A stretch of DNA of 32,000 bases, taken from the NCBI GenBank assembly GCA_003516025.1, contig CP023991.1, positions 420,001 to 452,000 on the forward strand. The letters run 5' to 3'. A model generated the notes under the pieces. It was not told the DNA's origin and searched no databases. It was given only the letters and a program-made list of their open reading frames with translations. Positions 6,211 to 27,178 of the stretch are shown here, in pieces. Positions within the stretch are counted from its first letter, which is position 1, and every line of letters begins with the position of its first letter. This stretch comes from Candidatus Saccharimonadota bacterium (GTDB lineage Bacteria > Patescibacteriota > Saccharimonadia > Saccharimonadales > UBA4665). Both the position numbers and the translations under genes were made by a program.

Positions 6211-6648
6211 TTATAGCAGTTGCGGCTGCTCTTTCATGGCTGCCGTATAGGTTTGAAAAAAATTTAGGACCGTTAGCTTATCCTCGTCGCGCAGACCTGA
6301 CAGGCCTTTTTTTATACCTGCGGAAGTAAGTTCTATTTGGGTTTGAATGATACCCCGGCCTTTCGGCGTCAGGTGAGCCTGTACGACCCGCCTGTCCAGT
6401 TTGTCGGGAACTCTTGTCACCAAGTCCAGTTCTTCTAGCCTGTCGACTATTGTGCTGACACTTGGCAGAGACAAACCGATCGCCTCCGCGATATCACGCA
6501 TTTTAGGTGGCCTGTCATTAAAAAATATGTAAGTAAGAACTTGGATATTAAGGACTGTCAAGTTGTGTAGCTCCCGGCTGGGACGTTGCTGCTGTGATAA
6601 GCGTCCCAGCTCGCCGAGGAGCTTCGCTATTTCCTGGTCGATATCCAT
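6211..6648 (-). CDS. MarR-family transcriptional regulator (distal gene of the MMPL operon)
   Basis: 145 aa with a winged-HTH core (MRDIAEAIGLSLPSVSTIVDRLEELDLV). Its start abuts the MMPL stop at 6649. Confidence 0.85.
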   Translation of the reverse strand: MDIDQEIAKLLGELGRLSQQQRPSRELHNLTVLNIQVLTYIFFNDRPPKMRDIAEAIGLSLPSVSTIVDRLEELDLVTRVPDKLDRRVVQAHLTPKGRGIIQTQIELTSAGIKKGLSGLRDEDKLTVLNFFQTYTAAMKEQPQLL

Positions 6649-12237: not shown

Positions 12238-12261
12238 GAGTTTGGCGGTTTGTTATATGGT

Positions 12262-12288
12262 GGCGTATCGTGGACGTACTTCGCAGTT
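12262..12288 (-). repeat. copy 3 (diverged) of the roughly 30-nt intergenic repeat family
   Basis: ATCGTGGACGTACTTCGCAGTT matches the repeat core at 19 of 22 positions. It starts 1 nt after the CofE-like stop codon. Confidence 0.6.
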
Positions 12289-13969: not shown

Positions 13970-14030
13970 ACAAAAATTATAACAATAAAACGAGCCACTG
14001 ATGTGACCCTGGGGGTGATTAGTTTTTTCT

Positions 14031-14060
14031 GGCTGGTTATAGTTGACGTGCTTCTCGACA
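14031..14060 (-). repeat. copy 4 (diverged) of the roughly 30-nt intergenic repeat family
   Basis: GGCTGGTTATAGTTGACGTGCTTCTCGACA matches the identical copies at 22 of 30 positions without gaps. It begins 18 nt after the PNPOx-like stop. Confidence 0.5.
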
Positions 14061-14589: not shown

Positions 14590-14604
14590 ATATTACTTAT
14601 GCTT

Positions 14605-14634
14605 GGCTGTCCATCGTTGACGTACTTCGCAACT
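14605..14634 (-). repeat. copy 1 of the 30-nt repeat (GGCTGTCCATCGTTGACGTACTTCGCAACT on the plus strand)
   Basis: Identical at 30 of 30 positions to 15240-15269. It lies in the 3' UTR position of lepB, upstream of the terminator. Confidence 0.8.
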
Positions 14635-14666
14635 TTGATGATTTAAAGAAGTGGTCCGGTTAAGCT

Positions 14667-15179
14667 CTAAGGCTCAACCTTGCCGACAATACTTTCTGCC
14701 GTAATAGGTCCAAATACTCGAGAATCCAATGAAACGCTTCTGTTGTCTCCGAGGACGAAATATTGGTTCGCAGGAATAGTAATATCAATTTTTCCGCTAG
14801 TGTCGATTTGTTGTTTTAGGTAAAGTGCATCAGGATTAAAGTCTCGCGAAAACTGACTATTGTATATAGTAACTTTCCCGTTAGATATGGTAACTCTTTC
14901 ATTGGGTAGCCCTACAACGCGTTTTATGAGTTGTTTGGTTTGGTTTTGTCCTTTTTCTGAAAAGACAACTATATCTCCTCGAGCAGGATTGGCCCCACCT
15001 TTATAGGGTTCTGCTTTTACTGTTTGTCCAGAATTAAGTGTCGGACTCATTGCGGGTCCGTCTACTGCATATAGGCTTCTGTGATAATGCACCAGAGCTA
15101 CCAATGCAATGGCGACCGCTACTAATAGGATGGCTATAATTATGAGAATAACTGTTATCTTTTTTACATTTCTTTTCAT
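14667..15179 (-). CDS. lepB: signal peptidase I
   Basis: 170 aa with an N-terminal TM anchor, the Ser box GPAMSPTL, RGDIVVF, the Lys box KRVVGLPNE and VLGDNRSVSLDSR. TGcTATAAT lies 6 nt from the ATG. Confidence 0.9.
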   Translation of the reverse strand: MKRNVKKITVILIIIAILLVAVAIALVALVHYHRSLYAVDGPAMSPTLNSGQTVKAEPYKGGANPARGDIVVFSEKGQNQTKQLIKRVVGLPNERVTISNGKVTIYNSQFSRDFNPDALYLKQQIDTSGKIDITIPANQYFVLGDNRSVSLDSRVFGPITAESIVGKVEP

Positions 15180-15196
15180 AACGGGATTATAGCATA

Positions 15197-15222
15197 TAAA
15201 AAGACCTCAAAATCTGAGGCCT
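15197..15222 (-). terminator. intrinsic terminator-like hairpin upstream of the lepB promoter
   Basis: The minus strand reads AGGCCTCA-gattt-TGAGGTCT followed by TTTT. Confidence 0.6.
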
Positions 15223-15239
15223 ATAAGCATAAGCTTTAT

Positions 15240-15269
15240 GGCTGTCCATCGTTGACGTACTTCGCAACT
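15240..15269 (-). repeat. copy 2 of the 30-nt repeat
   Basis: Identical to 14605-14634. It abuts the left edge of the AT-rich island. Confidence 0.8.
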
Positions 15270-15384
15270 ACGAGCAAATACAAAATTTGGCGAAATGATA
15301 ACATAATGTACTAAGATGTTAATGTCGGACAATTAGCAATTAAGTAAGTTATGTAGGTTATGAGACATCTTATCTGGATAATAA

Positions 15385-15406
15385 TGTCACTAGTGACAGG
15401 TATGAT
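15385..15406 (+). promoter_or_regulatory. perfect 14-bp palindrome TGTCACTAGTGACA followed 2 nt later by TATGAT; candidate operator overlapping a promoter
   Basis: Palindrome at 15385-15398 and -10-like TATGAT at 15401-15406, about 60 nt upstream of the ATG at 15465. Confidence 0.45.
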
Positions 15407-15464
15407 AGTAATTTTAATCGGAGGCACCCACCCATCATTGCCTCATTTGAATAGAGGATTCGAT

Positions 15465-16229
15465 ATGTCTGATGAAATTACGGCAGGAATAATCGGCGCC
15501 GGAGCTGGATTAGTCGGTGCTTTAATTGGGGCATATGCCGGTTATAGGTTTAATGAGAAGCTTGAAGCAACGCGTACTAAGGAACGCCGTCAAGTACAAA
15601 CAAAAAACACTATTTTCTCGCCAATTTATAAACAGCTCACAGGACTGAAAGCATTTTTAGATAATCGGCAAAATCCCTTAGCCCCTAATATTTCAGTTCA
15701 TTTCGCAAACGACAGATACCATGGCGGACTTAGCTATACCTTCGACATATGGGAGAGTATGAAGCGGGACATACGTAAATTATATATTCCAGTAAGTAAG
15801 CGTGAAGAACTAGATAAATTAACAAAAGTTATAGTGGATCATATGAATCTTCAGCAAGTTGTCCAAGCGTCCATTATTCAAATTGCTGTATCGTTTGCAG
15901 CGGAACATAGAGATCGTTTAAAAACGCCTTCTAGTTGGAATCCGCGGTTTATGGGAAACGCGTTGGATGTTTACTCGTCCGGCATCGCTTACCCTCGCAT
16001 TAAAGACGATATTAAAGAACACTTAAATTCTGGGTTCAACTTTAGCCCGGAAGAACAAGATCAGTTTGCTACCGAGCTACTGAAGAGAGTGGATGAACAT
16101 GAAAATCAAAAGCGTCTTATTAATAGCTTCAATCATGTCATGTCAACAATAGTACTAGTAACAGAATCATTTGAAACACTAGTCAGCGAGATAATTACTA
16201 AATACGAAGGAGGTGTTGATGTTAAATGA
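15465..16229 (+). CDS. hypothetical membrane-anchored protein (glycine-zipper-like N-terminal TM helix)
   Basis: 254 aa from ATG 15465, with AGAGGA SD 6 nt upstream. The track start at 15360 has no SD. TM segment GIIGAGAGLVGALIGAYAGY. The rest is soluble with no motif I recognise. Confidence 0.6.
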   Translation: MSDEITAGIIGAGAGLVGALIGAYAGYRFNEKLEATRTKERRQVQTKNTIFSPIYKQLTGLKAFLDNRQNPLAPNISVHFANDRYHGGLSYTFDIWESMKRDIRKLYIPVSKREELDKLTKVIVDHMNLQQVVQASIIQIAVSFAAEHRDRLKTPSSWNPRFMGNALDVYSSGIAYPRIKDDIKEHLNSGFNFSPEEQDQFATELLKRVDEHENQKRLINSFNHVMSTIVLVTESFETLVSEIITKYEGGVDVK

Positions 16230-16440
16230 TATAGGCCTGAGTAAAGCCGAGATTCGAAGAGAAATACAAAAACATTTAGATGAAAATGCTGACTTAGTAA
16301 TTGGAATAGATGACCCTGAAATGGTGCAGCTTATCGAAGTATTATGCGACGGATTTTCTGAAGCAATTTCCGCTAACAATAAAAAAATTGCGGATGATTT
16401 AAAACGTAACGACCGAGATATGGCTATGCGTCTTCGATAA
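16219..16440 (+). CDS. hypothetical small acidic protein, translationally coupled to the upstream gene
   Basis: 73 aa from ATG 16219. GAAGGAGG SD lies 5 nt upstream, inside the 3' end of the previous ORF, and the two ORFs overlap by 11 nt. Confidence 0.55.
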   Translation: MLNDIGLSKAEIRREIQKHLDENADLVIGIDDPEMVQLIEVLCDGFSEAISANNKKIADDLKRNDRDMAMRLR

Positions 16441-16447
16441 GTAGGCG

Positions 16448-17323
16448 TTACTTTGCTTTACCAATTTTGTTCATTAGTAGCTCATTCTTTTTACGCGATA
16501 TCCAGTAAACGAAATCAAAAATCAAAGGGGCTGTGATACGGTGACTATATATTGCATCTTGCAGTGCGCGTATGTCGGCCATATCAACTTGTTGTGTTTC
16601 GCTTGCGGCAAGAAGGGATTTTGATCTATTCAAATTAGCTTCTGCATTTTTTATTGCTTGGAAATTCTTATAACATTCAACAATCATGGTTTGAAATGCG
16701 GGAATCATCGGAACTATGATAACCAAAATGAATTCTTTTAGTTTTAAATCTCGCATATTTCCGACGTAAATTAAAACAAAGAATATTACAATTACTAAAG
16801 CTGTTGTTGTGATTGTGTATTTCGTTCTAAGACTGCCATCCCACCACGAATTTATTCTTTGAGCCGTAATGATTGCTTTGCTTTGTTCCCATCGAGGGCT
16901 AATCGTATACCAGTTTTTTAATCGAGGATCTTTATTTTTCTTCAGGAAAGTTTTTTTATTGAGTAATTTGTCTGCCCACTCTTCGATCACTTCTTTAATG
17001 TCAGGTTTATTAACGATGATTACATTCAAGGGTATCTCTAGAACGTGATGATCGAATAACTCCTGAATAGAGGCAGCAGTTTTTATATAGTTTTTTATAA
17101 TCAAATACAGTGCGGCATTAATGGCAATTACAGCGATACCCAAGATAGCTATGTGTGATGCAAACTGTGGTTTGAATATCGTAGCAAAACTAAAGACAGG
17201 GACTACAATAATATTAAGCAGAAGGGTTAATGCCCAGTATTTTTTTGCATGTGAGTAAATCGCTCTTTGGGCGGCAAGAAGTCGGATTGCTTTCTTCTCA
17301 TTCTGTTTTTTGATGCTGTTCAT
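16448..17323 (-). CDS. four-TM effector, S-4TM-like (SMODS-associated) CBASS effector candidate
   Basis: 291 aa with two TM hairpins (YWALTLLLNIIVVPVFSFATIF and IAILGIAVIAINAALYLII, then ALVIVIFFVLIYVG and FILVIIVPMIPAFQTMIV) separated by a soluble insert. It lies 1 nt downstream of the nucleotidyltransferase gene. Confidence 0.7.
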   Translation of the reverse strand: MNSIKKQNEKKAIRLLAAQRAIYSHAKKYWALTLLLNIIVVPVFSFATIFKPQFASHIAILGIAVIAINAALYLIIKNYIKTAASIQELFDHHVLEIPLNVIIVNKPDIKEVIEEWADKLLNKKTFLKKNKDPRLKNWYTISPRWEQSKAIITAQRINSWWDGSLRTKYTITTTALVIVIFFVLIYVGNMRDLKLKEFILVIIVPMIPAFQTMIVECYKNFQAIKNAEANLNRSKSLLAASETQQVDMADIRALQDAIYSHRITAPLIFDFVYWISRKKNELLMNKIGKAK

Positions 17324-17324
17324 A

Positions 17325-18233
17325 TCAATAGTTGTAATTAGGAAATTTATTATTAAACAGTAAATTTAACCAGTAGAACGCATCCTTAAAGTTACCACCT
17401 ATTGTAGCATTCATCGCTTTTTCACTTCTCACCATTGCCGTATGTATCTTGCTAAGTGCCGCTGTTTTCTTATATTCAGAATTGCATGCTGCGATATAGC
17501 CAACTATTCCTGTGGGATCTTGTAACTGCGCAAGATTTATAGAGTATAGATCTTTGAAATAATAATGTAGATGTACGACATAGCTTGCGACAGTGCCTTT
17601 TTTGAAATACGTCTCCGCATATTTAGCGGCTCTCATTTCTAAATAGAATGACGATATATCTACGACATTATAGTATTTCCATGCTTTGATGAATCTTATG
17701 AATGTTTTTACCTCGTAATTGTATGTGGTGTTAACCTCTGTTACGTAAGCATTATGAGCTTTTGGGGCTGTCTTAATCCATCCTCCGTTACCATCGGCGA
17801 TTCCATAGACGGGTATGCCGCTCTTCGTAAATTCTATTAAGTAACCGGGAACTACCTCGTTAGTCTCGACGCCGTATAAGCCAAATGGCACAACAACAGC
17901 AGGCGTACTAACGTGGACATTTGATTTAGGAAAGGTGTAATTCAGCTGATCTCTGACTTTAGTAAGCATTGTGGTTGAATTTGAAGTAAGCTGTTTTTCG
18001 GGTATCAATGCCATGTAATCAATATCACTGTAGTAGATGATGTCTGTTGAGTTGCCAGACGAGCCGCTCTGAAAAAAATAGTTAATTGTATAAATTTTTT
18101 CAAGGCTTGCAAGAACACTAGCTCTATGACCCTTGGCAGCATCCCTGGCTGTACTATTGGGTTTCAACGAGGTATGAAATTGGTCAAAAGCTACTTGTAG
18201 AGTACGTGGCATGTCCTTAACCCTTTTAACCAT
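17325..18233 (-). CDS. SMODS/CD-NTase-like nucleotidyltransferase (CBASS cyclase candidate)
   Basis: 302 aa with the pol-beta NTase signature G57-S58, 11 residues, then D70-I-D72 (QSGSSGNSTDIIYYSDIDYM). A candidate third acidic residue sits in the NEVVPG strand (E126). The alternative start is ATG 18212, because the ATG at 18233 overlaps a TGcTACAAT box. Confidence 0.8.
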   Translation of the reverse strand: MVKRVKDMPRTLQVAFDQFHTSLKPNSTARDAAKGHRASVLASLEKIYTINYFFQSGSSGNSTDIIYYSDIDYMALIPEKQLTSNSTTMLTKVRDQLNYTFPKSNVHVSTPAVVVPFGLYGVETNEVVPGYLIEFTKSGIPVYGIADGNGGWIKTAPKAHNAYVTEVNTTYNYEVKTFIRFIKAWKYYNVVDISSFYLEMRAAKYAETYFKKGTVASYVVHLHYYFKDLYSINLAQLQDPTGIVGYIAACNSEYKKTAALSKIHTAMVRSEKAMNATIGGNFKDAFYWLNLLFNNKFPNYNY

Positions 18234-18614
18234 TGTAGCACTAATGCTTAATAAAATAGCAATACTGACAAACTAAGTATTTGTCTTATGTTAATTTCTG
18301 CATTATAGTGTCTGGTAGCCTTCGAGATAATTCCATGACAATCCTGCAAGAGAAAGCTAAAGCGGCACAATTCCGCAAAAACCTCGCAGATCGCTGCGTT
18401 GTAATGAACAAGCCAGTCTGACGCGTATCCCGAAGATACAAACATAAGTAGATATGCCGTACGCAAGTCGAGGCCCTACTTAGTCAGATAGAACCTTTGA
18501 TTGCGAAACAGGTACTGCCACTCGCGACAAAGCTCAATCACCGTTTTTAGGTGTGCTCTATAAAGAGCGAGTTTTGTTGTGTCCTAGTACCGCAATATAA
18601 GAATCGATATTTAT

Positions 18615-18640
18615 AACCACCCAGAAATGGGTGGTTTTTT
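18615..18640 (+). terminator. strong intrinsic terminator with no annotated upstream plus-strand gene
   Basis: AACCACCCA-gaaa-TGGGTGGTT followed by TTTT. Confidence 0.6.
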
Positions 18641-18667
18641 AATACATAAAAATAGGAGGGATTTTAT

Positions 18668-18808
18668 ATGACGAAAAATCCAAAGCAGTTAGAACTTAAG
18701 TTCAACGTGAAGACCCGCAGCGATGGTGCTAGGAGCCGTGCGCCGCACCGGCGGGGCGGGCGTCCTGTATTACTTGATATACAGGACATAAATAGGGTCA
18801 TTTCATGA
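18668..18808 (+). CDS. small basic ORF (46 aa) coupled to rep by an ATGA overlap
   Basis: AGGAGGG SD lies 7 nt upstream. The product is MTKNPKQLELKFNVKTRSDGARSRAPHRRGGRPVLLDIQDINRVIS. The ORF is below the track size cut-off, and coding status is uncertain because the region also carries the origin-like hairpin. Confidence 0.4.
   Translation: MTKNPKQLELKFNVKTRSDGARSRAPHRRGGRPVLLDIQDINRVIS
18762..18787 (+). promoter_or_regulatory. candidate rolling-circle double-strand origin: 9-bp stem presenting TACTTGAT in the loop (CTTG/ATA nick-site consensus)
   Basis: GTCCTGTAT-tacttgat-ATACAGGAC. ACTTGATAT matches the nick region I recall for phiX174 and the CTTGATA core of pC194-class origins. It lies 18 nt upstream of the rep ATG. 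Confidence 0.6.
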
Positions 18809-19674
18809 ATAATGATCTCAACAAAATCGAGTCAATATTTGGAAAAATTAAAAAAATAGATGCCAGCTACGAGGTACGTGCCAGTGCGAAGTACTACCCT
18901 CATCATACAAAAGTATTTATTCCGAATGTTCCATACAGAAAAATGATTCCGTTCATGGAGCAACGCATTGATGATCTTGACGACATTGTAGAGGACTGGG
19001 ATACGAGGGTTATTGCTGATTCAAAAACATCAACTGAGGACAATTTGGAGCGGTCAATCCGCAGAACGAAAACACTTATTTCCGATTACGTTCTTTGTAA
19101 CGATTTTGATATATTCGCTACCTTTACCTTTTCCCCTAAGAAAACAGCCGATCGTACTGACACCCGTACCGTTAAACGCCAAATGAGTAACTGGATAAAA
19201 AACCAAAAAGCACGTAACAGCAATTTTGCATATTTGATTGTTCCAGAATTCCATAAAGACGGTAAGTCTTTGCATTTTCATGCACTTATCCATGACTATC
19301 CAGGCGAGCTCATCGATTCAGGCAATCGAATAAATGGCAGAAAATCGTACAACTTTAAAAGTTATACCCTCGGTATCAATAGCGCGGTAAAGATAGACGA
19401 CCGCCATAAAGTATCGAACTATGTTAAGAAATACATAACAAAAGACATGCCCCAGTTTCCCGGCAAGCACCGCTTTTGGTCTTCCACTGGCTTAGAGCGG
19501 CCACGGGTAGAGGATAACCCAAGTGAGTGGTACCTACAAGCAAAGCCACAGCGGGTATATGAAAATGAGTACGGGTGTACGCTCTACTTCATTACCGACT
19601 CGTCGCAAGCCACTGAGTCTCATAGTCTCACTGAAGGCAGCACTCCGCCATCGCTCTCGGAGAAAGACGCCTAG
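18805..19674 (+). CDS. HUH rolling-circle replication initiator (two-tyrosine, phiX174 gpA / Microviridae-like motif 3)
   Basis: 289 aa with motif 1 FATFTFSP, motif 2 SLHFHALIH (H157-F-H159) and motif 3 NYVKKYITK (Y206 and Y210). Confidence 0.85.
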   Translation: MNNDLNKIESIFGKIKKIDASYEVRASAKYYPHHTKVFIPNVPYRKMIPFMEQRIDDLDDIVEDWDTRVIADSKTSTEDNLERSIRRTKTLISDYVLCNDFDIFATFTFSPKKTADRTDTRTVKRQMSNWIKNQKARNSNFAYLIVPEFHKDGKSLHFHALIHDYPGELIDSGNRINGRKSYNFKSYTLGINSAVKIDDRHKVSNYVKKYITKDMPQFPGKHRFWSSTGLERPRVEDNPSEWYLQAKPQRVYENEYGCTLYFITDSSQATESHSLTEGSTPPSLSEKDA

Positions 19675-19675
19675 T

Positions 19676-19771
19676 ATGGCTTTGTCTTCCACTGACTTAG
19701 ATGCGTGGAAGGCTTACTTCAAGCTGCTTGCAGAACTCGACAAGAAACAGAATAAGAAGGACGCTAAATGA
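19676..19771 (+). CDS. possible 31-aa ORF between rep and the recombinase gene
   Basis: The ATG lies 1 nt after the rep stop. The product is MALSSTDLDAWKAYFKLLAELDKKQNKKDAK. There is no SD and the call is very tentative. Confidence 0.25.
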   Translation: MALSSTDLDAWKAYFKLLAELDKKQNKKDAK

Positions 19772-19811
19772 GCTATAATGTATATAAATTAAATCGGCGG
19801 TAACGGTGGGA

Positions 19812-21335
19812 ATGCATGCTTTTCTCATCGCTCGCGTATCGACTGCTGATCAGGTGGAAGCCTTGCCGGCTCAAGTCTATAAATTAACCGACTATGCTAA
19901 AAGTCAGGGTTACGATTTTGAGTTGTTCGAGTTTCATGAAAGCGCTTACAAAGGCACTCGAGAAAAGTTCCGCGAAGTCATAGCTACCATACAGGCGTCG
20001 ACCGAAAAAGTAGTCGTTGTCTTTGATAAAGTCGACCGTTTCACTCGTGATTCAAGCGCAGAAGAAACAAATATTTTCAAAAAGCTGTATCAGTCAGGAA
20101 AGATCGAGCTACATTTTCCATCTGAAAACCTGATACTACACGAAGGTTCACCGTCTACCGACAGAATGCGCCTCGGACTGAATACGATATTTGCAGAGTA
20201 TTACTCCGACGCTATAAGTGATAATGTAAAGCGCCGCAACTATCAGCTATGGAGAGACGGCTATTGGACCGGACCCGCACCGTTCGGATATGTAAATATA
20301 TCAAAACCAGATGGCAGTAAATGGATAGATAAAGTACCCGTTGAAGCATTAGCAGTGAAATTAGCCTATGAGTTATATGCCACTGGAAGCTACTCGCTCC
20401 GGCTTGTTCGCATGCAAGTTATAAAGCAATACGGTATTTCTCGTTCAATTGGCCAATGGGATAAGGTGCTCAAGAATCCGTTCTATGCAGGACAAATGAG
20501 AATCAAAGGCAAGCTGTACAAACACAACTATGAACAGCTCATTAACTCGTCATTATTCGATCAAGTTAAAGCCGTGCGGGAAGGTCATGCGATACAACCA
20601 AAAAGGTGGGCTGGCTTGCCGTATCCATATCGTGGACTTATTACGTGTGCTGACTGCGGTTGTAAGGTGACTTTCGAGATAAAGAAAGGCAAGTATGTAT
20701 ATGGTCACTGTACGCAGTTCAGAGGTAAGCACGATGCAGCGTATGTTAATGAAAAGTTAATGACAAAACAGCTTAGATCAGTATTCTGGCAGATACAAAT
20801 ACCGGAAGATGCTTATGAAGAAGTATCAAAAGCATTACTGGCTGATGATGAACAATCAAACCGACAAAACAGTGAAAAGCTAGAGCATATTAACGCCGAA
20901 ATCAAACGCTATGAATCGAAAATTGAACGTAATTACGATATGTATTTAGACGGCGGCATAAGCAAAGAAACCTATCAAAAGAAGCATGACGAATTGACAT
21001 TAATTAAGGCCTCACTCGAAAGCACTAGAAAAAATATCGAACTTATGGCGAACAATAATTATGACGGTGCATTACATCTGTTAGAGCTATCTCGTAAAGC
21101 GCCTGATTTATTTGAGACTGCTGAAATTGAAGAACGCCGTACGCTCATCAATATGGTACTTTCGAACTTGGAGCTAGACGACAAAGAACTTTGGTGGAAA
21201 CTAAAAGAACCATACGATTGTATGGTTCTTTGTAATGAAAACGCAAATTGGCTGGGGATGAGGGATTCGAACCCCCGAATGCTGGTACCAGAAACCAGTG
21301 CCTTACCACTTGGCGAATCCCCAATATATATGTAA
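19812..21335 (+). CDS. large serine recombinase (integrase)
   Basis: N-terminal resolvase domain with the catalytic-Ser context AFLIARVSTADQ, a recombinase domain, a zinc ribbon (CADCGCKVTFEIKKGKYVYGHC) and a C-terminal coiled coil. The last 28 codons read antisense through tRNA-Gln and beyond. The track start is GTG 19806. Confidence 0.9.
   Translation: MHAFLIARVSTADQVEALPAQVYKLTDYAKSQGYDFELFEFHESAYKGTREKFREVIATIQASTEKVVVVFDKVDRFTRDSSAEETNIFKKLYQSGKIELHFPSENLILHEGSPSTDRMRLGLNTIFAEYYSDAISDNVKRRNYQLWRDGYWTGPAPFGYVNISKPDGSKWIDKVPVEALAVKLAYELYATGSYSLRLVRMQVIKQYGISRSIGQWDKVLKNPFYAGQMRIKGKLYKHNYEQLINSSLFDQVKAVREGHAIQPKRWAGLPYPYRGLITCADCGCKVTFEIKKGKYVYGHCTQFRGKHDAAYVNEKLMTKQLRSVFWQIQIPEDAYEEVSKALLADDEQSNRQNSEKLEHINAEIKRYESKIERNYDMYLDGGISKETYQKKHDELTLIKASLESTRKNIELMANNNYDGALHLLELSRKAPDLFETAEIEERRTLINMVLSNLELDDKELWWKLKEPYDCMVLCNENANWLGMRDSNPRMLVPETSALPLGESPIYM
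21249..21323 (-). tRNA. tRNA-Gln (anticodon CUG), CCA encoded
   Basis: The reverse complement folds as a cloverleaf. Acceptor stem UGGGGAU/AUCCCCA, anticodon arm CUGGU-UUCUGGU-ACCAG, T arm GGGGG-UUCGAAU-CCCUC, discriminator G plus CCA. Length 75 nt. Confidence 0.95.
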
Positions 21336-22731: not shown

Positions 22732-22867
22732 AACTGTTTTCGTCCTTTTGGACTCATCAGCATGAAATTCCCATAATGGGCATTCATGGAACAGTGAGTG
22801 GTGACAGGTAGTGGAATCCTCCCGGTATGAGGGGGACTCAACAGTACCTGCCACCTGGCCGGAGTAC

Positions 22868-22889
22868 GATGTGACGACATTGTCACATC
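22868..22889 (-). terminator. hairpin after the last gene of the GC-rich operon
   Basis: GATGTGAC-gacatt-GTCACATC, an 8-bp perfect stem 15 nt after the stop at 22904. There is no U-tract, so function is uncertain. Confidence 0.45.
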
Positions 22890-22903
22890 AACTCACGGCT
22901 TCC

Positions 22904-24442
22904 CTAGACAGTGTCCAGGGTGTTCTTTCGTGTGGTCTCCAACCGCACCTCGCTCTCTTTGAGGATGTCGTGGCCGTGCTCGGTCTTGTGCCAGGTGTAG
23001 CGGGTCTTGCGACGAGCGAGCTCGAAGAGGACCCGGTACGCCGACCAGCTGGTGAAGATCCACCAGAAGGGTGCGAGCAGCATGTACTTGACGCTGCCGT
23101 AGCCCTCACGGTCGAGACATGCCGTAACCAGCTGCAGGAAGAGCAGCAGGTTGCCGACCAGGAGCAGTGCCACGCCAGTGTAGAACACCGGAGTGGGGAA
23201 CAACTGCTCGATGGCCTGCGAACCATCGGTGTAGCCCGCGACGCGAGTCACGAAGTACGCGATGGTCAGACCCCAGTAGATCGGGTTGAGCATCAGGCTG
23301 AAGGGCGTACCCAGCATCAGCAGGTTGAAGCAGAACCACTTGACGGGTCCCATCTGCCGAGCCGTACGTACCGGCTGCCTGGTGTAGACCAGACCGGTCT
23401 GCAGGTAGCCCTTCAGCCAGCGGCGTCGCTGCCCATCGGCCACGCGGACACGGGAAGTTGCCTCCTCGTAGGTCACCGAGTCGATGATCTTGATGTCGTA
23501 GCCGTACATGGCGAGGGCGCCAGCCAGCTCCGCATCCTCGGTGACGTTGTACGAGTCCCATCCGTAGGCGGCATCGGTGCCACCGGGGAGTGCCGGGAAC
23601 TCGCTCTGCGGGAAGGCGATCTTGCGGAGCACCTCCGTGCGGAAGTGGTTCGAAGTTCCTCCCAGCGGCGGTACCAGGTTGAGCTTGGCCAGCCCCGCCA
23701 GGTTGTACACGAAGTGCACCACGTACTCCGCCCAGTAGAACCGGGTGACCCACGAGGTGTCTTCGTTCCAGAACTGCAGCCGGGCCTGCACGCAGGCGAC
23801 GGTGCCTTTCTGGTCCTTGCGGAACTCGGCCACTGCCTTGAGCAGCTGGTCCGGGTCCGGACGGTCCTCGGCGTCGTAGATGACACTGAAGACGCCGGTG
23901 GCACGGGCCAGGCCGATGTTGAGCGCGCGCGGCTTGCCCTTGGGCTGGTTCATGCGCGCCTGGCCCTGGGGGATGCCCGGTGCGACGATGATCTCGAAGT
24001 TGTCCGGCAGGTCCATGATCTGGGCCTCCAGGAGGGTCTCGGTGTCATCTTCCTCGAGCAGCAACAGCACCTGCAGCCTGTGCTTGGGGTACTGGAGCTG
24101 GCTGAGGTTGTACACCAGCGCCGGCAGGATCTGGGCCTCCCTGTAGAGGGGAACCAGGGCGGTGTAGGTCGGCAGATCCGGGTCGTTGATGCTCAGCGGC
24201 GGCGTTGCCGGTGAAGATCCGCGGACCTGGAGTGATGCCACGAACAGCACGGCCTTCAGCAGCATGATGCAGCCGTAGAAGGTCAAGCTGATGTCGACGA
24301 GCACTTGCAGCGTGCCGGTGGTGAAGAGCACCAGGCCGACCAGGACTGCGAACAGGCCCAGTGCGAGGGTGATCTTCTGGCCGGTGCTCAGGAACACCCG
24401 GGCTGAACGCCGCGGCAGTGCCTTGTTGCGATGACCGCTCAC
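22904..24442 (-). CDS. membrane-embedded processive family-2 glycosyltransferase (cellulose/chitin/hyaluronan-synthase-like)
   Basis: Motifs VIYDAEDRPDPDQL, VTEDAELA and QRRRWLKG (the D, D, D, QxxRW signature), flanked by TM helices. The start is reassigned to GTG 24442, which forms a GTGA overlap with the upstream stop and has GAGGAG SD upstream. Confidence 0.85.
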   Translation of the reverse strand: MSGHRNKALPRRSARVFLSTGQKITLALGLFAVLVGLVLFTTGTLQVLVDISLTFYGCIMLLKAVLFVASLQVRGSSPATPPLSINDPDLPTYTALVPLYREAQILPALVYNLSQLQYPKHRLQVLLLLEEDDTETLLEAQIMDLPDNFEIIVAPGIPQGQARMNQPKGKPRALNIGLARATGVFSVIYDAEDRPDPDQLLKAVAEFRKDQKGTVACVQARLQFWNEDTSWVTRFYWAEYVVHFVYNLAGLAKLNLVPPLGGTSNHFRTEVLRKIAFPQSEFPALPGGTDAAYGWDSYNVTEDAELAGALAMYGYDIKIIDSVTYEEATSRVRVADGQRRRWLKGYLQTGLVYTRQPVRTARQMGPVKWFCFNLLMLGTPFSLMLNPIYWGLTIAYFVTRVAGYTDGSQAIEQLFPTPVFYTGVALLLVGNLLLFLQLVTACLDREGYGSVKYMLLAPFWWIFTSWSAYRVLFELARRKTRYTWHKTEHGHDILKESEVRLETTRKNTLDTV

Positions 24443-26013
24443 GGCTTCTCCTCGAAGACGTAGTAGGAATTGTTCTGGAAGGCCAGCGTGTAGCCGTCCA
24501 GTTCCGGCGAACCGTCGAGGGTGGTGTAGACCTCGTCCGGCTGGTCGGTGTGGCGCATGACGATCCACTGGATGTCACTGCCTGCGGGGTGGGCCAGGGC
24601 CGGCTCCCAGAGCTGGTAGCTGCCCTCGTAGAGGTTGGCCCCTGTCGGGATGCCGGCCTCGAAGAGGACGAGCTCGTTGCCGAACGACTCCATGAGCACC
24701 AGGCCGCCCTCGTAGTGTTCCTTGAGGTAGGCGCTGGCCTCGGAAGAGTCCGTGCTGTAGCTGGTGTCGAGTGCCACCACCGGCTCCTTGAGTGTCACGA
24801 CGTTGCTGGTGTCCGTTGCCGTCCACAAGCCGAACATCACGACGAAGCCGATGATGACCACGCTGGCCATCTGCGTGTAGATCCTGCTGGTGAGCAGGCT
24901 CGACAGGTAGCCGATCAGCACTGCTGCTGGCAGAACCATCAGCAGACCGAAGCGCACGTTGTACAAGTCACCGGAGATCTGCTCGACGTGCAGCGGCCGC
25001 TGGCCACTGTAGAGGGCGAACACGAAGAACGGGAACAGCGTCAGGAGCGACAGAACCGGCAGCGAGTGCGCGGACAGCCGTTCACGAACGATGTACCCGA
25101 TCAGACCGATGACGGCCAGCACTGCGATCGGCAACCAGAGGTTGCTGACCGTCGCGATGGTGTAGGTGCGCAGCGCGACTAGCGGGTGTCCCAGCGAGGG
25201 TTCACCGCTGCCGACCCAGAGGGACGGCTTGGCGTACTCGCCGACCTGGAAGCTGAGCGGGTTCCCGAAGATGATCAGGTTCCACAGCATCCAGCCGGAG
25301 ATGGCGATTCCGCCGATGATCGCGAAGGCGATGACGGTGCCCTCGATCTTGCGACCTTCGAACTTGGAGCGCCATCCCATGATCCCGATCAGAACCGTCA
25401 GTACTGCGAACAGCACCCACGCTTCGTAGCGGGTCAGGCATCCTGCCAGTCCTGCCAGCCCGGCACCGATGAGGTAGCCGAACCGGTCAGTCTTGATCCA
25501 GCGCTGTGCACCGTAGACCATCCCCGCCATGCAGGCGAAGAGCAGGAGCTCGGTCATCGGCGTGGACTGCATGTACAGCACGTTGGGGTTCAGCATGAAC
25601 ACCAACGCACCGACGATGCCGGCCAGCTTGTGACCCGTGAGGTCGACGACGATCTTGTACAGCAGCGCGCTGGTGATGACGTAGGCCACCATCGACACGA
25701 TGCTGCCAGCGAAGCCGTTGAAGTACAGCGGGTCGATCCAGACGAACGGCAGGGACAGCAGGTGGGGCAGCGGAAGCCACACTCCACCGAGCTGCGCGAA
25801 CGACATGCCGCCGGACGGGTTGTTCAGTGTCCGGCTGGCGATCTCGAGGTGCGAGATGCCGTCCTTGTACGCCAAGATCACGCCCTTCTGGAAGAAGTAC
25901 GTGAACGAGGCGACCGACAGCAGGCTGGCTACGAGCGCCACCCAGCGGACGGTCTTGTCACGCTGCGGTGGACTGATGACCATGGGGTCACGGTCGAGTG
26001 TTGCGGTAGCCAT
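24439..26013 (-). CDS. polytopic membrane protein, putative GT-C-fold (ArnT/PMT-like) glycosyltransferase
   Basis: 524 aa with about 11-13 TM helices, a first loop carrying YKDGISHLEIA, and a C-terminal soluble domain. Its position after a polyprenyl-phosphate GT2 fits a three-component Gtr-type system. The family assignment is an inference. Confidence 0.7.
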   Translation of the reverse strand: MATATLDRDPMVISPPQRDKTVRWVALVASLLSVASFTYFFQKGVILAYKDGISHLEIASRTLNNPSGGMSFAQLGGVWLPLPHLLSLPFVWIDPLYFNGFAGSIVSMVAYVITSALLYKIVVDLTGHKLAGIVGALVFMLNPNVLYMQSTPMTELLLFACMAGMVYGAQRWIKTDRFGYLIGAGLAGLAGCLTRYEAWVLFAVLTVLIGIMGWRSKFEGRKIEGTVIAFAIIGGIAISGWMLWNLIIFGNPLSFQVGEYAKPSLWVGSGEPSLGHPLVALRTYTIATVSNLWLPIAVLAVIGLIGYIVRERLSAHSLPVLSLLTLFPFFVFALYSGQRPLHVEQISGDLYNVRFGLLMVLPAAVLIGYLSSLLTSRIYTQMASVVIIGFVVMFGLWTATDTSNVVTLKEPVVALDTSYSTDSSEASAYLKEHYEGGLVLMESFGNELVLFEAGIPTGANLYEGSYQLWEPALAHPAGSDIQWIVMRHTDQPDEVYTTLDGSPELDGYTLAFQNNSYYVFEEKP

Positions 26014-26780
26014 CAGGCTGCCATCTCCTTGGAGTCGTGGTGCTTGAGCGCACGCTTGAACTTGCGGTTGATGCGGTTCAGCTCCCTGATGGAACTGAAG
26101 GCCACATGGATCTTGGCGCCCGACTGCTTGCCGTAACGGCGCGGGCCGTGCGTAACGCCGACGTTCACCACCCGAAGCTGGTGTTCCTTGACGTACCGCA
26201 TGATCTCCGGAGAGATCGCCGCGCCCTGCATGGCGGTCAGCTGGTCGGCGAAGAGCTTGAGGCCCTCGCGCTTGAACAGCTTGAAGCCGCAGTCGACGTT
26301 GAACGCCTCGTGCTTGACGATCGCCCGCGAGAGCAACTGCCAGGCATGGCCGATGAGCTTCCTCGTCCAGTTGTCGGCACGTTTGATCCTGAAGCCGATG
26401 GCGACATCCGCGTTGGCGGAGAGCGCTTCGTTCAGGAGCTTGCTGACTTCCTGGGGAGCGAACTGCCCGTCGGCATCGCAGAACCCGATCCAGTCGTAAC
26501 CCATGGCCAAGCCGGTCTTGAGGCCGGTCTGGAGGGCTCCGCCGTATCCGAGGTTCCGGATGTGGGTCTCGGTCCGCACCTTGTCACCGTAGAGGCTTTC
26601 GAGGCGCTTGCAGACCGTGGACGTGTCGTCCTTGCTGCCGTCGTTGACGATGATGACGACGAACTCGTGCCCCTGCTTGTCCAGGTGGTCGACGGCTTCG
26701 CCTACCACGAAGGGCAAGTTCTCCGCCTCGTTCCAGGCCGGCAGGAAGAACGCGATGCTGGGCTTTGCTGAAGTGTCCAT
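26013..26780 (-). CDS. family-2 glycosyltransferase, polyprenyl-phosphate sugar synthase type (GtrB/Ppm1/DPM1-like)
   Basis: 255 aa from ATG 26780 with IAFFLPAWNEAENL, VNDGSKDDT, NLGYGGAL and CDADGQF. The TAATG overlap with gtrA and the TGATG overlap with the next gene indicate coupling. The track's extension to 26963 is rejected. Confidence 0.85.
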   Translation of the reverse strand: MDTSAKPSIAFFLPAWNEAENLPFVVGEAVDHLDKQGHEFVVIIVNDGSKDDTSTVCKRLESLYGDKVRTETHIRNLGYGGALQTGLKTGLAMGYDWIGFCDADGQFAPQEVSKLLNEALSANADVAIGFRIKRADNWTRKLIGHAWQLLSRAIVKHEAFNVDCGFKLFKREGLKLFADQLTAMQGAAISPEIMRYVKEHQLRVVNVGVTHGPRRYGKQSGAKIHVAFSSIRELNRINRKFKRALKHHDSKEMAA

Positions 26781-27178
26781 TAGACACCCCTTTCTGGTTG
26801 GAAGACCACGTGGTGGTTGATCAGGAAGGTGCAGACAGTGCTGAGCAGCGTCGCGAAAATTGCCGCGACTAGACTTGGGAGAGCACAGACGTTGTGCGCC
26901 AAGCCAAACAGTAGGCTGTTGATGCCGAGCGCCAGTGTGGCGTTGAAGGCAAACTTGAGCCATGTCAGCAACAGATACCCACCAGTACGCCGCGCAGAGT
27001 CACCCCAGGTAAAGGTGTAACTGAGCACGAAGTTCAACTGAGCGGATATCATGAAACCAATGCCGTTCGCATAGAGCGCGGGCATGTAGTGTTCCAGCAG
27101 GTGCAGTAGTAATAACTGGACGAGGAAACACAGCAACCCAACTCCAACGAACTTTATCTGTCGGCTCATGTATTCCAA
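26780..27178 (-). CDS. GtrA-family small membrane protein (polyprenyl-phosphate sugar flippase-like)
   Basis: About 130 aa with four TM helices and FVGVGLLCFLVQLLLLHLL at the N-terminus. 27178 is a TTG, so ATG 27169 is the likelier start. Confidence 0.75.
   Translation of the reverse strand: MEYMSRQIKFVGVGLLCFLVQLLLLHLLEHYMPALYANGIGFMISAQLNFVLSYTFTWGDSARRTGGYLLLTWLKFAFNATLALGINSLLFGLAHNVCALPSLVAAIFATLLSTVCTFLINHHVVFQPERGV

Follow-up and report, generated by a model that had tools for sequence, protein, structure and literature searches.

A two-gene type I CBASS operon as probable cargo of a small integrative element in a Saccharibacteria-like genome

The stretch of DNA analysed here (32,000 nucleotides of contig CP023991.1, positions 420,001 to 452,000; hereafter the window) carries two adjoining minus-strand genes, a cGAS/DncV-like nucleotidyltransferase (CD-NTase, the cyclase) and a four-transmembrane (4TM) effector. 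Together they very probably form an intact two-gene type I cyclic-oligonucleotide-based anti-phage signalling system (CBASS), borne as cargo by an integrative element of about 6.6 kb. The CD-NTase/SMODS cyclase occupies 17325..18233 as an open reading frame (ORF) of 302 aa, and the S-4TM effector (291 aa) occupies 16448..17323, beginning 1 nt past the cyclase stop codon. Both ORFs and their spacing had been noted in an earlier sequence-only reading of this DNA, and the junction (...TAT TGA T ATG...) confirmed the 1-nt gap on the same strand. With a gap of only 1 nt, co-transcription and translational coupling of the pair are probable. The sequence of the pair was identical across two independent metagenomes and the genome record.

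A putative operon promoter was read from the sequence at 18232..18262 on the minus strand as a consensus match (TTGCTA, a 19-nt spacer, and the extended −10 element TGcTACAAT). This extended −10 element shares nucleotides with the upstream in-frame ATG of the cyclase ORF, and an AAGG-rich stretch stands before M8. The starts of 32 of 35 cyclase homologues aligned with M8, the remaining three having short N-terminal extensions, and the NCBI copy of the same cyclase (295 aa) also begins there. Because of these aligned starts and the overlap of the extended −10 with the upstream ATG, the true cyclase start is probably M8 (ATG at 18212), giving a protein of 295 aa. Cyclase residue numbers below refer to the 302-aa ORF; 7 is to be subtracted for the 295-aa protein.

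The cyclase and its membrane effector

The cyclase matched the Pfam family SMODS (PF18144) over residues 12–168 with 43.1 bits against a cut-off of 26.5 bits (E = 6.9e-11). The PADLOC Cyclase profile PDLC00776 covered residues 8–300 (profile positions 1–286 of 287) with an E-value of 1.5e-100, and 29 PADLOC cyclase models matched the 302-aa protein in total. Antibiotic nucleotidyltransferases (NTases) and MNT proteins, the non-signalling families that the sequence-only reading had named as the competing assignment, gave no match at E ≤ 1 in Pfam or NCBIfam.

The active site was analysed in an alignment of 36 sequences, consisting of this protein and 35 homologues at 42–67% identity. The motifs followed in the order G57-S58, 11 residues, D70-I71-D72, and later E126-V-V-P, so every part of the catalytic signature described in the sequence-only reading was present. 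G57, S58, D70, and D72 were invariant. E123 and E126 were at least 90% conserved, and position 126 was Asp in two sequences only. Because of this conservation, Glu at position 126 is, as judged from the alignment, the normal third acidic residue of the cyclase subfamily and not a defect. An AlphaFold2 (AF2) model built on the alignment reached a predicted local distance difference test score (pLDDT) of 92.7 and a predicted TM-score (pTM) of 0.88. E126 sits on the predicted strand 123–135 of the catalytic sheet in this model, and it may coordinate metal.

Foldseek searches against the PDB returned only CD-NTases among the 44 best matches to the cyclase model. The best match was Pseudomonas aeruginosa CdnD (PaCdnD, 6p8u) with a TM-score of 0.81, an E-value of 1.4e-16, and 22% identity, followed by CdnC, CdnB, CdnE, CdnG, and DncV. 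The AF2 model and Foldseek both showed a bilobed cGAS-like fold with an NTase core and a C-terminal helical lobe. PaCdnD was also the sole significant PDB sequence match of the cyclase (phmmer, E = 1.6e-4). The modelled cyclase is nearest in fold to clade D (CdnD), and its placement in that clade is only suggested. Homologues at 45–49% identity were observed in Woesebacteria, an ACD aquifer bin of the Candidate Phyla Radiation (CPR), Pseudomonas, and Noviherbaspirillum. Because these homologues are so scattered, the cyclase subfamily is regarded as horizontally spread and is already found in other CPR lineages.

The effector matched Pfam S_4TM (PF18159) over residues 5–286 of 291 with 213.5 bits (E = 5.5e-63), and nine PADLOC 4TM effector models matched it (best E = 3.7e-61). 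No transporter family, the competing identity named for this 291-aa protein, was matched. The hydropathy profile gave four transmembrane segments at about residues 30–50, 55–78, 170–190, and 197–217, arranged as two hairpins (about 30–78 and 170–217) around a soluble insert of about 90 aa. The AF2 model (pLDDT 91) was all-helical, with long hairpins at 10–95 and 147–241 plus three shorter helices. Hydropathy and model agree with the two transmembrane hairpins and soluble insert described earlier from the letters, and the full-length S_4TM match beside a cyclase gene upholds the assignment to the SMODS-associated 4-TM class. The N-terminus, the 80–170 insert, and the C-terminus all carry a net positive charge and are therefore predicted to be cytoplasmic by the positive-inside rule.

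In an alignment of 41 sequences 15 columns were invariant, and the effector retained all of them. The invariant motifs include LAAQR..Y..AK, AA.IQELFD, WY, QR.N.WWD..LR, and R.LQD.IY.HR, and the conserved motifs map to the cytoplasmic extensions of the transmembrane helices and to the C-terminal helices in the AF2 model and hydropathy profile. No solved relative was found by PDB sequence search, and the best Foldseek match had an E-value of 0.7; weak matches to the transmembrane domains of ABC transporters had E ≥ 0.7 and TM-scores ≤ 0.26. The S_4TM family comprised 1480 clusters (50% identity, E ≤ 1e-3), of which only 13 matched this effector at E ≤ 1e-30 and only 4 exceeded 40% identity. By these similarities the effector sits on a small divergent branch of the family.

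Ancillary CBASS genes (Cap2/Cap3, HORMA/TRIP13, and others) were not recognised by Pfam or PADLOC among the scanned flanking island proteins. Because the locus has a cyclase and a single effector, with no ancillary match in those proteins, it is classed as a two-gene type I CBASS, in agreement with the sequence-only reading. That reading had also called the first protein a SMODS/CD-NTase and had proposed SMODS and S-4TM profile searches, a PADLOC run, and a structure prediction of the cyclase as checks. Pfam, PADLOC, and the top fold matches all pointed to a CD-NTase; the Pfam scores were above the gathering score for both proteins, PADLOC recognised both with the E-values given above, and the confident cyclase model combined a CdnD-like fold with a catalytic sheet that has E126 on one of its strands.

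The island, its relatives, and its surroundings

The CBASS pair lies inside an island of low GC content at third codon positions (GC3), which spans about 14.6–21.25 kb of the window and adjoins a tRNA-Gln. The GC3 values of the 4TM effector, cyclase, replication initiator, and recombinase genes were 0.35, 0.38, 0.46, and 0.41, respectively, and those of the signal peptidase gene and of two further ORFs of 289 aa and 75 aa were 0.31, 0.33, and 0.29, respectively. The island thus ranged from 0.29 to 0.46, compared with 0.43–0.60 for the backbone genes. An independent JGI metagenome contig consisted of exactly 14596–21325 at 100% identity.

A rolling-circle replication initiator (Rep) of the REP_ORF2-G2P family is encoded at 18805..19674 on the plus strand (PF23343, E = 8.1e-13; PHROG 3419, E = 4.2e-12) and is transcribed divergently from the CBASS operon. 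It was 35–38% identical to Rep proteins of small single-stranded DNA (ssDNA) phages. Next to it, at 19806..21335 on the plus strand, lies a large serine recombinase (integrase) with matches to Pfam Resolvase, Recombinase, and Zn_ribbon_recom and to PHROG 95 (E = 2e-57). The right-hand boundary and integration target is a tRNA-Gln(CTG) at 21249..21323 on the minus strand (ARAGORN; Rfam tRNA, 59 bits). No virion (capsid or packaging) genes were recognised in the element, and IMG/VR held no relatives of Rep. A known virus was rejected as the identity of the element, since IMG/VR gave no Rep relative and the similarity of Rep to proteins of small ssDNA phages is only distant.

A metagenome scan with the Rep alignment yielded 121 related loci, and 80 of them were kept. 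The closest informative relative, a Logan contig (L087), showed the same order of recombinase, Rep, cyclase, and 4TM effector, with identities of 46%, 41%, 61%, and 46%, respectively, and this contig begins inside the 3' end of a tRNA. Rep followed by a homologous recombinase (40–51% identity) was observed in nine of the 80 loci, none of which carries CBASS. Eight of the nine have a tRNA (L088–L090, L093, L097, L101, L102, and L105), and the recombinase ORF in those eight ends inside the tRNA or crosses it in antisense orientation, the tRNA being Asn, Gln(CTG), Gln(TTG), or Trp. These sister ORFs end 8–53 nt inside the tRNA, or beyond it. The ninth locus, L098, showed no tRNA beside the recombinase. 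In L101 an element of about 4.6 kb is bounded by two perfect 22-nt copies of the tRNA-Gln(TTG) 3' end in direct orientation (1670–1691 and 6276–6297), a likely attachment (att) core.

The slot upstream of Rep was filled differently in the sister elements. L097 carried an 826-aa N6-methylase/specificity fusion that scores as type IIG restriction–modification (RM), L102 carried Shedu SduA, L093 carried a set of multiubiquitin, DUF6791/ThiF E1, and DUF6527 genes, and L098 carried a secreted SNase; further cargo in this position, not assigned here to single loci, comprised a Zeta toxin and DUF2726. The next-closest CBASS pairs (L084–L086, cyclase 57% identical) lay beside housekeeping genes without Rep or recombinase, and the pair of L084 stood directly after a tRNA-Gly. 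Adjacency of cyclase and 4TM genes recurred in L084–L087. Because L087 keeps the gene order while the sister elements hold other systems in the same slot, the comparison shows that CBASS is cargo that can be exchanged on a small, conserved integrative element. The low GC3, the tRNA adjacency, the Rep and serine recombinase, and the related element of the same order all bear out the earlier description of the pair as cargo, and the related elements do so more firmly than the window by itself would allow.

In the window the recombinase ORF runs without a stop codon up to the tRNA; it crosses a hairpin at 21207–21228, which is terminator-like and bidirectional, and the entire antisense strand of tRNA-Gln. 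The recombinase tail (KLK.P...M..CNEN..W.G) was conserved between the window and L087. Because the recombinase ORFs end in or beyond the tRNA both here and in the sister elements, their layout suggests that the attachment site overlaps the 3' end of the integrase gene, and the C-terminus or stop codon of the integrase may change on excision.

The probable left end of the island was placed approximately at 14596..15269, a segment with the low-GC3 signal peptidase I gene (14667–15179, minus strand) and 31-nt repeats. Identical copies of the 31-nt sequence TGGCTGTCCATCGTTGACGTACTTCGCAACT lie at 14604–14634 and 15239–15269 and flank this gene, and weaker copies (74% identical) occur in two other intergenic regions at 12258–12288 and 14030–14060. 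Two Logan contigs (L002 and L083) break precisely at the two exact copies. The repeat might act in regulation or termination, or it might be a site of recombination that marks the left end of the island.

The elements with Rep, serine recombinase, and tRNA may constitute an undescribed integrative family of about 4.6–6.7 kb that shuttles single defence cargoes among small genomes, a proposal that in our judgement falls just short of probable. The core of such a family may pair an ssDNA-phage-type Rep with a large serine recombinase and lack recognisable virion genes. Its members may target tRNA 3' ends (Gln, Asn, and Trp), with the recombinase frame entering the antisense strand of the tRNA. 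The cargo may include CBASS, Shedu, a type IIG RM-like gene, and a ubiquitin-like E1 system, and possibly the module of 289 aa and 75 aa described below. The host range possibly covers Saccharibacteria and other small-genome bacteria, a taxon having been assigned for the backbone of the window only.

The backbone and island proteins that were looked up all lie on one NCBI contig of 1,005,782 bp. Relatives of the backbone were sought in GTDB, with each species represented by a single genome. The two closest matches to MetK, at 65% and 62% identity, came from metagenome-assembled genomes (MAGs) of Saccharibacteria (L003 and L004), and MgsA on the contigs of those two MAGs was 75–79% identical to that of the window. 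These similarities support a reduced-genome, Saccharibacteria-like backbone, and the reduced-genome background proposed in the sequence-only reading holds to the extent of a contig of about 1.006 Mb and the Saccharibacteria affinity of MetK and MgsA. One related Saccharibacteria MAG has a tRNA-Gln(CTG) directly upstream of MetK. The island proteins of the window matched nothing at the tRNA-Gln–MetK site of L004, whose left flank was not syntenic. L003 and L004, which retain the order tRNA-Gln–MetK–MgsA, were rejected for an empty-site comparison, because their left flank is unrelated to that of the window, and they do not define the element boundary.

A glycosyltransferase cluster at 22811–27178 (two glycosyltransferase family 2 (GT2) genes, PMT_2, and GtrA) showed 61–64% GC and GC3 values of 0.68–0.89. 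Its insertion separates MetK from MgsA, two genes that are only about 600 bp apart in L003. Its best matches in a limited plasmid collection were actinobacterial (Nonomuraea, 45%; Frigoribacterium, 40%). There are hints that this cluster was acquired from a high-GC organism, possibly a host.

Within the island, two overlapping ORFs of 289 aa and 75 aa occupy 15360..16440 on the plus strand and converge on the CBASS operon. The 289-aa protein has N-terminal transmembrane segments, the 75-aa ORF overlaps it by 17 nt, and neither protein gave a Pfam, PADLOC, or PHROG match. Only three homologue clusters of the module were found among 5.8 billion proteins. It recurs on a mobile element (L168) with 41% (289-aa) and 68% (75-aa) identity, between an ApeA-HEPN gene and RadC and beside type IV secretion genes. 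Among the called neighbours of the homologue P0256 on L168, the sole context retrieved, no recognisable CBASS gene was present. A role as CBASS accessories was rejected in view of the opposite strand and the lack of a defence-profile match; the two ORFs probably represent cargo of their own, outside the CBASS system, and they may form an uncharacterised defence or toxin–antitoxin module.

The 570-bp gap between cyclase and Rep (18234–18804) contains a strong plus-strand intrinsic terminator (18615–18636, followed by a T-run) and promoter-like sites near 18265–18309. No convincing ORF and no Rfam match were found in it, and a small RNA or regulator in the gap is possible. The equivalent gap of L087 holds a 165-aa transmembrane protein with a faint PycTM match, and no remnant of this protein was found in the window. 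A 46-aa Arg-rich ORF (18668–18808, plus strand), whose stop codon overlaps the Rep start codon, was called as a gene in both metagenome contigs too. L087 has a 38-aa ORF at the same position, with no obvious sequence similarity.

Proposed mechanism and competing explanations

Type I operons mostly combine a clade D, E, or F cyclase with a 2- or 4-TM effector (10.1101/2023.05.21.541620). In E. coli, the type I operon EcCdnD12-4TM restricted phages of five families at least 10,000-fold. Its CBASS-dependent toxicity disappeared when both catalytic Asp residues were mutated (DDAA), and plaque assays used this mutant operon as the inactive control (10.1101/2023.05.21.541620). It is the only precedent for protection by abortive infection on which the comparison draws. 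CBASS transmembrane effectors kill by oligomerisation and damage to the inner membrane (PMC10419184).

By analogy with such systems, infection would present some phage cue that switches on the CD-NTase. The cyclase, with its GS...DxD...E Mg2+-binding site, would then make a cyclic oligonucleotide from nucleoside triphosphates, likely a cyclic tri- or dinucleotide. The S-4TM protein would bind this signal through its conserved, positively charged bundle of cytoplasmic helices, to which the N-terminal helix, the C-terminal helices, and the insert separating the transmembrane hairpins contribute. The effector would oligomerise or open in the membrane, and the loss of membrane integrity would lead to death or arrest of the cell before the release of phage progeny (abortive infection). 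The enzymatic product, the trigger, the ligand-binding site, the mechanism of membrane disruption, and phage protection in this organism are all proposed in this conditional sense. Family membership, intact catalytic and conserved residues, topology, operon structure, the lack of ancillary genes among the scanned neighbours, island context, and related elements with other cargo were established directly.

Several points weigh against the explanation of the locus as a cargo-borne type I CBASS. The cyclase scored 89.1 bits with NCBIfam CBASS_cyclase_b (NF041117), below the equivalog cut-off of 200 bits, and by this score it is related to, but outside, the curated named cyclase equivalogs of NCBIfam. 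The third catalytic acid is Glu, where Asp is the usual residue; it is conserved, and its catalytic role is putative. Since the identity to solved CD-NTases is about 22%, the clade D assignment and the product prediction are weak. The S-4TM protein has no solved structure or structural relative, so ligand binding and pore formation are assumed from genomic association. At the left end of the element, no tRNA-derived repeat was detected within the window by short-word BLAST, and a pattern search allowing three mismatches hit the tRNA only. CBASS function here is predicted from sequence and structure models, and we know of no experimental evidence for any CBASS in a CPR bacterium.

The same biochemistry might mainly benefit the mobile element, which the pair could stabilise by addiction or otherwise, or defend as a weapon against phages and rival elements that would displace it. 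The pair travels with Rep and recombinase in two elements, its cyclase is 61% identical between the window and L087, compared with 41–46% for the element backbone, and the sister elements hold other defence or toxin modules, including the Zeta toxin. However, such a role is compatible with host defence and does not exclude it, and host-cell protection by type I CBASS operons has been shown experimentally (10.1101/2023.05.21.541620). Moreover, nothing antitoxin-like was found in the locus, and the closest copies outside such elements (L084–L086) lie beside housekeeping genes with neither Rep nor recombinase. We consider a mainly element-serving role unlikely, but compatible with the data.

It is highly improbable that the locus is an inactive relic, in which the ORFs are intact but function was lost through the exchange of Asp for Glu or through silencing of the operon. 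E126 does stand where most CD-NTases carry Asp, and the promoter is a consensus guess only. Against this, at least 90% of the 36 subfamily members conserve the Glu, every invariant residue of cyclase and effector is kept, both ORFs are full length compared with their profiles, and the identical sequence recurs in two independent metagenomes and the genome record.

A very small chance, slightly below that of a relic, is given to a housekeeping circuit in which a second messenger would control membrane permeability for physiological ends, such as exchange between epibiont and host, in place of immunity. The putative nature of trigger and product, and the reliance of CPR bacteria on exchange with a host cell, leave some room for such a circuit. 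However, the pair lies within a horizontally acquired island, the same slot in sister elements holds Shedu, an RM-like gene, or a ubiquitin-like defence system, and the homologues are patchy over unrelated phyla at 45–49% identity, as is typical of defence genes.

The identity of the first gene as a non-signalling NTase (antibiotic NTase or MNT) and of the second as an unrelated membrane transporter, for which the generic pol-beta GS...DxD motif common to such NTases and the weak Foldseek matches of the 4TM model to ABC transporters could be cited, is given practically no credence and was refuted by the profile and fold searches, which found no such NTase family at E ≤ 1, a full-length CD-NTase profile match, a fold closest to CdnD including the C-terminal helical lobe, and transporter matches far weaker (E ≥ 0.7, TM-score ≤ 0.26) than S_4TM (E = 5.5e-63).

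Comparison with known systems

With type I CBASS as the preferred reading, the locus is an ordinary system of the commonest architecture, well supported and unsurprising to specialists. The sequence-only reading had rated it as notable in a reduced-genome epibiont and had called the 4-TM effector class poorly characterised. This was overstated: no type I architecture is commoner than an operon with a 2- or 4-TM effector, CdnD12-4TM has been assayed with at least 10,000-fold restriction (10.1101/2023.05.21.541620), and a survey of the defence repertoires of CPR bacteria, which covers how mobile elements deliver them, is already available (PMC12259885).

What is new is a divergent S-4TM/CdnD-like pair from a Saccharibacteria-like genome of about 1 Mb, where a predicted abortive-infection system arrives on a tiny Rep/serine-recombinase element with an exchangeable cargo slot. 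That Glu fills the third catalytic position throughout the family should help biochemists who study this effector class, and so should the well-predicted all-helical S-4TM model, with its conserved cytoplasmic motifs and no solved relative. The element family and the unannotated 289-aa/75-aa module are the leads of greatest discovery potential; if true, an undescribed shuttle family would explain the flexible immune repertoire of genomes of about 1 Mb.

Like EcCdnD12-4TM, the locus is a two-gene operon free of ancillary genes, with a CD-NTase of about 290–300 aa followed by a four-transmembrane effector of about 290 aa. The fold of the cyclase is closest to CdnD, and its likeness to EcCdnD12-4TM is one of architecture and description. 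Unlike EcCdnD12-4TM, it belongs to a Saccharibacteria-like host of about 1 Mb and not to a proteobacterium, its third acid is Glu, and it is carried by a Rep plus serine-recombinase mini-element.

PaCdnD (6P82, 6P8U, and 6P8J; type III CBASS) has the same length as the cyclase, its GS and DxD motifs align, and it is the best solved match. It differs at about 22% identity, and no HORMA, TRIP13, or nuclease gene was observed among the scanned neighbours here. Ye et al. reportedly found in 2020 that PaCdnD is regulated by HORMA and TRIP13 and paired with the NucC nuclease.

The effector shares its topology, its invariant residues, and an adjoining SMODS gene with the S_4TM family (PF18159; named 'S-4TM family putative pore-forming effector' by NCBI), a class that Burroughs et al. 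are said to have predicted in 2015. Within this family it belongs to a small divergent branch. It resembles Cap15 (2TM-beta-barrel) and Cap14 (2TM-SAVED) in a presumed nucleotide-triggered oligomerisation and disruption of the inner membrane (PMC10419184). Unlike these two effectors, S-4TM has no SAVED, beta-barrel, or NUDIX sensor, and its putative sensor is an all-helical cytoplasmic bundle. It showed no sequence or fold similarity to solved structures.

P4-like satellites and phage-inducible chromosomal islands (PICIs) are tRNA-targeting integrative elements that carry defence hotspots. The element described here is likewise small and sits at a tRNA 3' end, and it combines a variable slot for different defence systems with a conserved core for replication and integration. 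It differs from them in the absence of recognised capsid or packaging genes, in the use of an ssDNA-phage-type HUH Rep and a large serine recombinase in place of a tyrosine integrase and primase, and in a recombinase ORF that overlaps the tRNA in antisense orientation.

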